This document shows positions 37,401 through 39,841 of a stretch of 45,161 nucleotides of DNA, piece after piece. Location of the stretch: positions 1 to 45,161 of the forward strand of contig JAHWKN010000003.1 of assembly GCA_019347875.1 (NCBI GenBank), in the 5' to 3' direction. Position numbers and translations under genes: made by a program. Under the pieces are notes generated by a model. It had not been told where the DNA came from and did not search any database. It worked only from the letters and a program-made list of their open reading frames with translations. Position 1 is the stretch's first letter, and each line of letters opens with the position of its first letter. Source of the stretch: Candidatus Parcubacteria bacterium. GTDB taxonomy: Bacteria; Patescibacteriota; Saccharimonadia; UBA4664; JAHWKN01.

Positions 37401-37429
37401 ATACTAACACAGTGCGTTATGATTGTCAA
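37401..37429 (-). promoter_or_regulatory. Sigma70 promoter divergent from dprA
   Basis: TTGACA-17 bp-TAGTAT with extended TG; overlaps plus-strand promoter-like sites ending in TATGAT (37391, 37418). Confidence 0.7.
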
Positions 37430-37437
37430 TACTTTTT

Positions 37438-38286
37438 ATGCAAATCTCTAGGCTTTCTCACAACCGGCCGGGCTACCCGGAACAGCTGCGCGAAATCAGC
37501 TCGCCGCCGCAAGGGCTGTTCGTGTTGGGGAATCTGCCAAAAGGGCCCTGCATCGCCATCGTCGGCACCCGCCGGCCAACCGAGTACGGCCGCCAGATGG
37601 CCTACCGGCTGGCCGGCGAGCTGGCCTCGGCCGGCGTGGTGATCGTCAGCGGGCTGGCCGTCGGCATAGACGCGGTGGCCCACCAGGCGGCGGTAGAGGC
37701 CGGAGGAGTAACGGTGGCGGTGCTGGCCTGCGGCCTAAACCAAATATACCCGGCCACCAACCGCTCGCTGGCGGTCAAAATTCTGCAGCGCGGCGCCATC
37801 ATCAGCGAGTATCCGGAAGGCACGCCGCCCCTGCGGCACCACTTTGTCGCCCGCAACCGTCTCATCTCGGGCCTCAGCTGCGCCGTCGTCATCCCGGAGG
37901 CCGACGCCTCCAGCGGCTCGCTGATTACCGCCAACTTCGCGCTGGAGCAAAACCGCAGCGTCATGGCGGTACCCGGCAACGTCACCAGCTTGCGCAGCGC
38001 CGGGCCAAACAACCTGATCAAGTCGGGCGCCACTCCCGTCACCGACACCAGCGACATTTTGGCCGCCCTGGATCTGGAAGCGCCGCAACTGGCCAAATCG
38101 GCCGTTACCGCCAAAAGCCGCGAGGAAGCGCAGATTCTGGAGCTGCTGTCGCGCGGGGTCAACACCAGCCAGGAGCTGATCACGCAAAGCCAAATGAGCG
38201 CCGGCCAGTTCGCCAACGTCATCACCCTGATGGAGATCACCGGCAAGGTTAGAAACCTGGGGGCCGGCAGCTGGATCGCCCGCTAA
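37438..38286 (+). CDS. dprA: DNA-processing protein DprA
   Basis: YPEQLREI, AIVGTR, IVSGLAVGID..AH, F.ARNRLISGL, SGSLITA and VPG motifs. Confidence 0.96.
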   Translation: MQISRLSHNRPGYPEQLREISSPPQGLFVLGNLPKGPCIAIVGTRRPTEYGRQMAYRLAGELASAGVVIVSGLAVGIDAVAHQAAVEAGGVTVAVLACGLNQIYPATNRSLAVKILQRGAIISEYPEGTPPLRHHFVARNRLISGLSCAVVIPEADASSGSLITANFALEQNRSVMAVPGNVTSLRSAGPNNLIKSGATPVTDTSDILAALDLEAPQLAKSAVTAKSREEAQILELLSRGVNTSQELITQSQMSAGQFANVITLMEITGKVRNLGAGSWIAR

Positions 38287-38336
38287 CCAGAGAGTACTTT
38301 AGCCTCGGTCATGCTTACGTTTGCTATACTAGACCC

Positions 38337-38870
38337 ATGAATAAAGCCAACAACTACGCCTTTATCGACAGCCAAAACCTTAACCTGTCCATTCGTGAGC
38401 TGGGCTGGCACGTCGATTGGCGCAAGTTCCGCACCTATCTGAAAGAAAAGTACGGCGTCAGCAAGGCCTACCTGTTTGTGGGCTTCGTAGAAGAAAACCA
38501 GGCCATGTACGACTCGCTGGCCCAAGCCGGTTTTGAGCTGGTGTTCAAGCCGATTATGACCAACAAAGACGGCCAGGTGAAGGGCAACATCGACGCCGAG
38601 CTGGTGCTACAGGCCATGATCGACTACGACACCTACGACCAGGCCGTGATCGTGACCGGCGACGGCGACTTCTACTGCCTGGTAAAGTATCTGCTGGAGC
38701 AAAACAAGCTGCTGAAGCTGATCATCCCGAACCGCTACAAGTACTCGTCTCTTTTAAAGGAGAAGACCGTCATTTCGGCCTCTCACATGATCTTTATGAA
38801 CGACCTGCGCAAACGGCTGCAGTACAAAAGAACCGCCCCGCGCGAAAGCGAGAAGCGGTCGGAGGAATAA
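38337..38870 (+). CDS. NYN (LabA/DUF88, PIN-like) domain nuclease
   Basis: AFIDSQNL, KGNIDAEL and IVTGDGDF catalytic acidic motifs; TGcTATACT 6 nt before the ATG. Confidence 0.92.
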   Translation: MNKANNYAFIDSQNLNLSIRELGWHVDWRKFRTYLKEKYGVSKAYLFVGFVEENQAMYDSLAQAGFELVFKPIMTNKDGQVKGNIDAELVLQAMIDYDTYDQAVIVTGDGDFYCLVKYLLEQNKLLKLIIPNRYKYSSLLKEKTVISASHMIFMNDLRKRLQYKRTAPRESEKRSEE

Positions 38871-38930
38871 GACCCGGGGGGTCTACTTAATGACCAGCCA
38901 TTAAGCGTGCCCTGCCCGTGGTGATCCTGC
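38826..38930 (-). ncRNA. Candidate ~105-nt antisense RNA overlapping the NYN gene 3' end
   Basis: Own promoter at 38936-38964; hairpins CTTAATG/CATTAAG and AGACCC/GGGTCT; terminator GACCGCTTC/GGGGCGGTT-CTTTT whose G-U pairs form only on the minus strand. Confidence 0.65.
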
Positions 38931-38935
38931 TTAAA

Positions 38936-38964
38936 ATTTTAGCAACCTACCGGGTTGGCGTCAA
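38936..38964 (-). promoter_or_regulatory. Sigma70 promoter antisense to the NYN gene
   Basis: TTGACG-17 bp-TAAAAT with extended TG. Confidence 0.75.
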
Positions 38965-38988
38965 CCAGGCGGTTGCTATAATTTAGGC

Positions 38989-39522
38989 ATGACTAAACGA
39001 AAATCGGCCTTGCTGGTGATCGACGTTCAAAACTACTTTGTTAATGATAAGAACTCGGTAGTACCGCACAGGATCGCCGACCACATTAAGGCCGGTAACT
39101 ACGACCACGTTTTGTTCAGCCAATTCGTCAACCGGCCCGGCTCTAACTTTGAGCGCATATTAGACTGGCACAAATGCACCGGTCCGCCGGACACCGACAT
39201 CCACGCCGCCCTGGTTGAGTTTACCAGCGAGCAGACGGTGTTTGCCAAGTCAACCAAGTCGGCCTTTAAGTCGGCTGGGCTGGTTGATTTTCTTAAAGAA
39301 CACTCTATTAATCGGATCGATCTGTGCGGCCTGGACATCGACGACTGCGTGCTGGCCTCGGCGTTTGAGGCGTTTGATCTTGGCTACGACTTTAAGGTGC
39401 TGGAGGAGCTGTGCGCGATCAGCCACGAGACCGGCGAGGTCCACGCCGCCGCGCTGCAGATCATCCGCAAAAACTTAAGTAGCGCGGATAGCGTGAGGCC
39501 GGGGGCTGACAGGCCGAACTGA
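38989..39522 (+). CDS. Isochorismatase-like cysteine hydrolase
   Basis: ALLVIDVQNYF, K...SAF and CGLDIDDCV motifs (D-K-C triad). Confidence 0.9.
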   Translation: MTKRKSALLVIDVQNYFVNDKNSVVPHRIADHIKAGNYDHVLFSQFVNRPGSNFERILDWHKCTGPPDTDIHAALVEFTSEQTVFAKSTKSAFKSAGLVDFLKEHSINRIDLCGLDIDDCVLASAFEAFDLGYDFKVLEELCAISHETGEVHAAALQIIRKNLSSADSVRPGADRPN

Positions 39523-39841
39523 CTATAGCATCATCACCATCACAGCGGCTTATTGAAGGGTAGGGGCGCGGTCAAGACAGCCCATCGCCGCCGGAGTGGT
39601 TAAACGCCGGTCAGAACACAATGCGCTATGATTGTCATTTTACTAACTATCGATTACCAGCCTCTGCTGCAACTTTTAGTCTGAACGAAAAGCCCACTTC
39701 ACGCATAGACACTAATATTTTGTTTAGTCTGCTTTATCGCACCACCAAGCGAATGACATACGCCCCACGACGACAGACGGAACTGTGAGCTAGCAAAAAT
39801 CGTATTGCATTCGCACCGCCATGCTTTAGCATAAGAGCGGT

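Follow-up and report, generated by a model that had tools for sequence, protein, structure and literature searches.

A small-RNA gene convergent with a predicted NYN-domain nuclease gene recurs beside related genes across bacterial phyla

Here we describe a pairing between a gene for a NYN-domain protein, predicted to be a nuclease, and a small-RNA gene that runs towards it from the opposite strand and overlaps its 3' end. The pair was examined in a 45,161-nucleotide (nt) stretch of DNA (hereafter the window), which is contig C33 of the Candidatus Parcubacteria genome G000 (789 kb, 59% G+C, 85% complete, 40 contigs). A two-part module of a NYN gene and an RNA had been proposed in an initial annotation of this one locus, and comparison bears the proposal out: a homologous convergent small-RNA gene is carried by 78 of the 80 best public-genome NYN loci. 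As judged from gene order and phylogeny, it is strongly supported that the pair is a self-contained two-part module that travels between phyla among unrelated genes.

The RNA family was defined independently of the window. NYN homologues were collected from genomes of the class (E up to 1e-20), from a scan of species-representative genomes, and from metagenome and viral-collection loci. Homologues were present in 158 of the 401 class genomes, and the species-representative scan returned 555 relatives; the public records that hold the nearest NYN genes carry Saccharibacteria and other Patescibacteria labels. Thirteen antisense-strand elements were aligned with the window left out, and a covariance model, R1, was built from the alignment. 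An R1 match lies on the antisense strand at 62 of the 80 public-genome loci, within 150 nt of the NYN stop codon at 60 of them, the other two having an earlier in-frame stop. The 18 loci that R1 missed comprise 14 with a divergent variant by rule (an AUCAC-like tail, a promoter with at least 8/12 matches and a U-run), two recognised by eye, one that is cut by a contig end and one on a contig too short to judge. The element is also present at all three viral-collection NYN loci and at 9 of the 30 NYN loci of the class sample; one of these nine carriers, L028, comes from an unpublished genome (G244) and contributes one row each to alignments A2 and A5. In the six metagenome loci with enough flank we found a common nucleotide motif at and after the stop codon together with a consensus promoter facing the gene; at L018 the element is cut by the contig end, and the contig of L014 ends one base past the stop codon. 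Outside its own alignment R1 recovers L027 and L030, and it also picks up an additional copy in L028 and one that lies upstream of NYN in L014/L015. Carriers span Patescibacteria, Bacteroidota, Planctomycetota, Chloroflexota and Pseudomonadota, and at least one is a cultured isolate, Emticicia sp. BO119 (L119).

Copy number varies at a few loci. Two unlike RNA copies lie in tandem, antisense, beside a single NYN gene in L028 (1970-2139), L077 (1285-1464) and L132 (1664-1833), and the upstream second copy of L015 (212-271) is the weaker one.

Searches of existing collections did not return the family. Rfam 15 gave only a tRNA at gathering score in the window, and at the element in nine carrier loci it gave no match at E up to 1. 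In full-text literature, outside subscription journals and supplements, we found no paper that pairs a NYN gene with an antisense RNA. There was no match in 50,697 phage records, and the NYN genes found on plasmids are only 27-29% identical.

Several lines of evidence point to an RNA gene on the antisense strand. RNAalifold predicts 13 base pairs in the 13-element alignment, 9 of which show compensated changes, and 7 of 9 pairs are compensated in a separate alignment that takes 26 members from two other variants; both alignments were made with MAFFT and were not fitted to R1. In the model-fitted alignment the paired cells amount to 93.9% and both sides have changed in 11 of 13 pairs, a result that 0 of 500 shuffles reach, and sliding the partners lowers pairing to 55-71%. 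The strand is indicated as well: family stems contain 65 G-U against 15 A-C combinations when read on the antisense strand, and of 65 matches, 48 have at least five U residues within the 8 nt past the stem when read on the antisense strand and none do on the sense strand. The distance from tail to U-run has a median of 57 nt. A sigma-70-type promoter with at least 9/12 matches ends 4-11 nt before the tail at 56 of 64 loci, compared with 6% of shuffles; with at least 10/12 matches the figures are 47 of 64 loci and 0.7% of shuffles. Nearly all family members open with AUCAC(C/G)A, and a UUYCGU loop and internal loops are conserved unpaired across phyla. Relative to the element, the NYN stop codon falls at at least five model positions and in two reading frames. 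The stop codon shifts while the nucleotides stay, and therefore it is the RNA and not a protein tail that is conserved. Comparison of the 3' flanks of homologous genes thus finds promoter, ATCACCA 5' segment and stems conserved, with stems that covary, and by this comparative evidence the element is a promoter-driven, terminator-ended antisense RNA gene tied to the NYN 3' end, which it overlaps or adjoins.

The opposing view, that the element is a protein tail, a DNA recombination site or, in the window, a chance mirror promoter joined to a chance terminator, draws on four observations. At a few loci the NYN frame runs through the whole element and yields similar basic peptides. The window promoter is one half of a palindrome, the other half of which is the real promoter of the next gene. 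About seven TGYTAWAAT promoter words are expected from base composition, and eight such sites lack an open reading frame (ORF). Terminator-like sites, finally, are common (7 found, 4.2 expected). These observations are set against the shifting stop codon, the covarying stems, the G-U pairs and U-run that suit one strand only, the consensus promoter at a fixed short distance and the fact that the window's variant has a homologue of its own (locus L114, below). From the window alone, a chance promoter and a chance terminator would stay possible; the sequence comparison settles against it, and we regard a non-RNA origin as largely refuted and very improbable. Two further candidates were considered and set aside. 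An integron attC-like site was assessed by eye only, with no model run, and the conserved promoter and strand asymmetry favour an RNA gene. Small ORFs inside the RNA occur as AUG-led mini-frames in some variants; they are not kept in frame and are missing in others.

By its predicted fold the window's copy is a divergent long variant, in which stems P1 and P2 are followed by a separate terminator (Table 1). L114, a locus of a single-cell Patescibacteria genome, carries the same long variant in the equivalent position relative to its NYN gene. When all of G000 was searched with the L114 element, there was one significant match, C33:38925..38876 (80% identity over 51 nt; E 4.6e-5 with blastn and 1e-4 with nhmmer), which is the window's RNA gene. 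The two RNAs fold alike, and three P2 pairs have changed on both sides. In a DNA search of 40 relatives, none closer than the same order, the NYN coding sequence was matched and the flank never, and the exact pattern of the window's RNA variant was found in the window alone among 401 genomes of the phylum.

Table 1. Features of the NYN locus in the window
Feature	Coordinates	Strand	Details and basis
Small-RNA promoter	38936..38964	-	-35 TTGACG (38964..38959), 17-nt spacer, TG (38944..38943), -10 TAAAAT (38941..38936); promoter scan, 10/12 matches
Predicted small RNA	~38928..38826	-	~103 nt; start inferred ~7-8 nt after the -10, end at the U-run
Single-stranded 5' tail AUCACCA	38919..38925	-	shared with nearly all family members as AUCAC(C/G)A
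Stem P1 enclosing hairpin P2	38872..38918	-	P1 38918..38872, P2 38906..38885; predicted fold, L114 homologue alike
Terminator	38826..38860	-	hairpin (38860..38831) and U-run (38829..38826); terminator scan and fold
Imperfect palindrome	38934..38984		14-nt arms (38934-38947, 38971-38984), 93% complementary; repeat and promoter scans
NYN gene (PF01936, LabA-like)	38337..38870	+	177 amino acids; Pfam profile match
Promoter-like extended -10 (TGCTATACT)	38322..38330	+	6 nt before the NYN start codon; read from sequence
dprA	37423..38286	+	flanks NYN upstream
Isochorismatase-family gene	38989..39522	+	flanks NYN downstream

The TTGACG-17-TGcTAAAAT promoter that the initial annotation saw directed into the NYN gene is present as described. 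Promoter-like sites number 7 in the scanned stretch that holds it, against 1.2 +/- 1.1 in shuffles. Genome-wide, TGCTAAAAT and TGCTATAAT are the two most frequent TGNTANNNT words in G000, and as judged from word counts and placement the extended -10 word is a promoter signal of G000 itself. At 32 of its 44 TGYTAWAAT sites an ORF of at least 60 amino acids starts within 36 nt, mostly 6-9 nt away. Eight of the 44 have no ORF within 120 nt, and the site facing NYN is one of these eight; another drives a tRNA-Met, and the remaining ORF-less sites gave no Rfam match when considered as RNA genes. We note that most strong G000 promoters have TGYTAWAAT 6-9 nt before a start codon (e.g. 38974-38988 and 38322-38336); many G000 genes therefore appear to be translated from leaderless mRNAs.

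The predicted transcript folds more stably than expected by chance on both strands, and more so on its own: the minus strand of 38929..38822 reaches -43.7 kcal/mol (z -3.3), compared with -39.3 kcal/mol (z -2.4) for the plus strand. Its promoter ends 10 nt before the AUCAC tail, inside the 4-11 nt family range. The sequence that follows the terminator hairpin reads UCUUUUG. The terminator had been said to overlap the last ~45 nt of the coding sequence and to need G-U pairs available on the minus strand only. We find the hairpin and U-run within the final 45 nt of the NYN coding sequence, and three G-U pairs of the predicted stem become A-C on the plus strand, in agreement with both statements. 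The picture of a ~105-nt RNA with two hairpins was right about the length; we instead take the second hairpin (~38871-38885) for the 3' arm of P1, a longer stem around the first hairpin, and the L114 homologue shares this fold. There are no direct repeats at the NYN locus, and the small RNA is present as one convergent copy. The downstream isochorismatase-family gene, also leaderless, has its promoter at 38955..38982, back to back with the small-RNA promoter inside the palindrome; the -35 boxes of the two promoters overlap, TTGGCG being read on the plus strand and TTGACG on the minus strand.

The 177-residue protein scores 58.8 bits against PF01936 over residues 9-130 (cut-off 24.2), and it is the single PF01936 match in G000. 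Four aspartates (D11, D86, D109 and D111) are invariant among 16 aligned homologues; as in PIN-like folds generally, we take these to form the metal-binding active site. By sequence, 2QIP, a protein of unknown function, is the sole relative with a solved structure. PADLOC returns a weak match to its generic NYN model (E 4e-8), and NCBIfam gave no match above family cut-offs. By family, then, this is a NYN-domain nuclease whose activity is predicted. The neighbouring genes are dprA and the isochorismatase-family gene. As initially annotated, no protein antitoxin adjoins NYN, and the neighbours at homologous loci are unrelated. The NYN mRNA appears to be leaderless because an extended -10 lies only 6 nt before its start codon; this site has the layout of most TGYTAWAAT sites in G000 and is absent from the list of the two-hexamer promoter scan. 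In the available text of a 2017 classification of PIN-like nucleases (PMC5499597), NYN groups are listed as 'Function unknown', with functional studies lacking. A bacterial NYN protein is described in the available part of a later report as a non-specific, Mn-dependent single-stranded RNase (PMC11346440).

How tightly is the RNA linked to NYN genes? A whole-genome R1 search of 151 class genomes gave 15 matches in 14 genomes. Ten are convergent at a NYN 3' end, and an eleventh connects to a NYN gene over a contig break (L062 and L013). Another lies beside a 78-residue, internally deleted, head-to-tail NYN remnant (G112; L052 1398-1634), another beside an unrelated 350-residue ORF that keeps approximately the last 11 NYN codons (G140; L058 1501-2573), and two are orphans with intact promoters away from any NYN gene (G075 and a second copy in G027; L064 and L066). 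That the RNA persists where NYN has been lost fits a putative antidote role. The RNA of G112 is the top score of the class search. In L111, L145 and L120 there are in-frame stops inside the conserved NYN domain and the RNA is kept; these NYN genes may be pseudogenes or may be read with another genetic code.

The distribution of the pair indicates movement. In a tree of 114 NYN proteins (quick maximum likelihood, with support from the Shimodaira-Hasegawa-like approximate likelihood ratio test only) the phyla are mixed. Flanking ORFs are singletons in 121 of 142 cases and lie on the NYN strand in 57 of 70 cases upstream and 57 of 72 downstream. No third conserved gene emerged among flanking ORFs of at least 70 amino acids or upstream ORFs of 35-110 amino acids. 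In the window, the pair is located between dprA and topA; in 9 of 24 relatives topA follows dprA at 50-1250 nt, and none of these has NYN there, and therefore the cassette, isochorismatase gene included, is an insertion at a variable spot. Twenty-seven longer NYN homologues read as fusions, in frame, with host domains of unrelated kinds, NUDIX in 11 cases.

These patterns could be explained by a selfish mobile cassette akin to free-standing homing endonucleases, in which NYN would cut DNA at empty sites and spread by repair, and the RNA would keep its expression low. This scenario has the same RNA mechanism as our preferred reading below and gives the nuclease another job. In its favour, insertion sites vary from genome to genome among unrelated neighbours, usually with their orientation; phyla are mixed in the NYN tree; the cassette lies between dprA and topA in G000, where the relatives with these two genes close together have no NYN; NYN decays or is replaced at some loci; and host-domain fusions occur. 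On the other side, no intein domain, and hence no intein-borne form, was found among the 27 longer homologues; the bacterial NYN enzyme cuts RNA and not DNA, according to the accessible portion of its report (PMC11346440); no target duplication was identified around the cassette; no relative closer than the same order shows presence and absence at one site; and the search of phage records was empty. We consider the homing scenario doubtful.

Some side observations touch on this insertion spot and on the fusions. Among same-order genomes (L153-L175) the dprA-topA interval is a small variable spot of ~50 to 1250 nt. A 26-nt direct repeat (37405-37430 and 39614-39639, 22/26 identical) with a TATGAT -10-like box occurs just twice in the genome, just before dprA and ~200 nt before topA, and so brackets dprA, NYN, the RNA gene and the isochorismatase gene; one possibility is that a promoter was duplicated when the insertion parted dprA from topA. 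The NUDIX-NYN fusions (P0010, P0012-P0014, P0021-P0027) and the methyltransferase/epimerase fusions resemble read-through from a host gene into an inserted cassette.

What does the RNA do? Our preferred reading, to which we give an even chance, is that it is an antisense repressor of NYN, as in a type I toxin-antitoxin pair. Pairing would take place at the 3' end of the NYN mRNA, to which the RNA is fully complementary; in the window this region comprises the stop codon and the final 45 nt. RNase III, which G000 encodes, would then cut the duplex, or the mRNA would lose its protective 3' hairpin and stop codon, and little nuclease would be made while the RNA is present. Since the NYN mRNA is apparently leaderless, its 3' end would be the sole place left for post-transcriptional control. 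Tight control is plausible because a bacterial NYN protein is, as far as the available part of the source goes, a non-specific single-stranded RNase (PMC11346440).

A number of observations weigh against antisense repression of a toxic nuclease. Nineteen NYN genes, all from the Saccharibacteria class sample and confined to a few, mostly long-branched tree groups, have no RNA, and at 0 of these 19 loci is there an antisense promoter with at least 10/12 matches between -150 and +300 of the stop codon. Four RNA-less proteins (L025, L034, L044 and L049) keep the four invariant aspartates in the 16-protein alignment, and the nuclease is therefore not lethal in every setting without the RNA. The label 'toxin' for NYN is weakened, as far as gene content can tell, because these 19 loci lack both RNA and strong antisense promoter. 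The conserved unpaired 5' tail, the UUYCGU loop and the internal loops are not explained by pure cis-antisense action; such conservation of unpaired nucleotides suggests a further partner, which could be a protein or a second RNA. Targets for the 5' tail were sought in NYN mRNAs: the 84 loci hold 21 sites, where shuffled tails give 11.3. Thirteen of the 21 sites fall on codons of the conserved AVIV motif, in too few loci for a general target. In one variant group the modelled RNA ends only 3-13 nt into the coding sequence, and the module is single-copy in G000, unlike many toxin-antitoxin families. The window's copy itself scores at noise level with R1: the match is in the right place (10.7 bits, E 4.1, rank 3 of 5 in the window), a filtered whole-genome R1 run on G000 gave no match, and membership is argued from the L114 homologue, position and architecture.

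The conserved unpaired nucleotides bring in a type III-like alternative, in which the RNA acts on the NYN protein as inhibitor, decoy substrate or cofactor, and the overlap is a compact way of sharing a terminator. It would account for the tail and loops kept across phyla, for RNA variant types that track NYN clades and for orphan RNA genes with intact promoters away from NYN (L064, L066). It would also suit an enzyme that cuts single-stranded RNA, as a bacterial NYN protein does in the available text of PMC11346440, meeting an RNA with a single-stranded 5' tail. A protein ligand acting in trans would have no need of the convergent 3' overlap that is kept at nearly every locus, however, and there is neither a tandem repeat array nor a same-strand arrangement; the unpaired conservation could equally serve loop-loop contact with a complementary mRNA hairpin. 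On balance we think a protein-directed RNA improbable. The initial annotation had listed a guide among possible roles as well; a variable-guide role looks unlikely because the 5' tail is nearly invariant.

A broader synthesis combines antisense repression with a protein partner. The module would be a mobile RNA-gated nuclease present in more than 12 phyla, its RNA serving as antisense brake and also, by way of the invariant 5' tail and the conserved loops, binding the protein specifically to inhibit it, to target it as a cofactor or to confer immunity, with the orphan RNAs protecting their hosts against incoming cassettes. We offer this as a speculative proposal that is more likely wrong than right by a good measure.

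Bacterial NYN/LabA-like proteins constitute a very large family, and the module gives one clade of it a constant partner, an RNA of ~50-100 nt with a strong promoter. If the RNA restrains the nuclease, the pair would represent a new, very widespread family of RNA-controlled nuclease modules, and it would add a small-RNA family to organisms with almost no known regulatory RNAs. Should the mobile RNA-gated scenario hold, the logic of type I and type III systems would be combined in one RNA, and the bacterial NYN/LabA family would gain its first defined partner.

The closest architectural parallels are type I pairs with convergent antisense RNAs that overlap the 3' end of the toxin gene, txpA/RatA and bsrG/SR4 of Bacillus subtilis, the duplexes of which are cut by RNase III, and the par locus of pAD1, where RNA I and RNA II share a bidirectional terminator. 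Like these pairs, the NYN module is predicted to have a convergent small RNA with its own promoter over the mRNA 3' end, a shared terminator hairpin and no protein antitoxin. It differs in that the toxin of those systems is a small, usually hydrophobic peptide, whereas here the gene encodes a 177-residue nuclease of soluble type; moreover, in the NYN-associated RNA the 5' tail hardly varies and the loops are maintained from phylum to phylum, and some NYN genes lack this RNA. To our knowledge, few type I-like pairs have an enzyme as toxin. In E. coli, SymE/SymR and RalR/RalA are such pairs, with nucleases as toxins, and are exceptions to the small-peptide rule; SymR overlaps the mRNA 5' end and RalA acts in trans with Hfq. 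The NYN module would share with them a nuclease restrained by an antisense or partly complementary small RNA, while the folds of SymE and RalR are unrelated to NYN and the NYN module is spread far wider.

In type III systems (ToxIN, CptIN and TenpIN) a structured RNA neutralises an endoribonuclease, and this RNA is encoded as tandem repeats upstream of the toxin, on the same strand, and is processed by it. Tight linkage of nuclease and structured-RNA genes is common to both; the NYN-associated RNA, in contrast, is a single convergent copy with its own promoter, without upstream same-strand tandem repeats. Among mobile elements, IS10 uses an antisense RNA, RNA-OUT, that covers the 5' end and start codon of RNA-IN and so limits expression of a mobile gene. 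Both cases combine the gene of a mobile cutting enzyme with a small antisense RNA; they differ in that the NYN-associated RNA lies at the 3' end, and in that the mobility of the NYN cassette is deduced from its distribution alone. Free-standing homing-endonuclease cassettes likewise consist of a single nuclease gene, gained and lost at varied sites with horizontal transfer. Finally, a CRISPR-associated NYN ribonuclease of Bacteroides fragilis trims CRISPR RNA in a type III CRISPR locus (clustered regularly interspaced short palindromic repeats), as presented in the available part of that report (Chi and White 2024, PMC11346440). So far as this part allows comparison, in both cases a bacterial NYN-domain protein is tied to a small RNA; the module described here has no CRISPR array or cas gene near it, and its predicted RNA is antisense to the nuclease gene itself.

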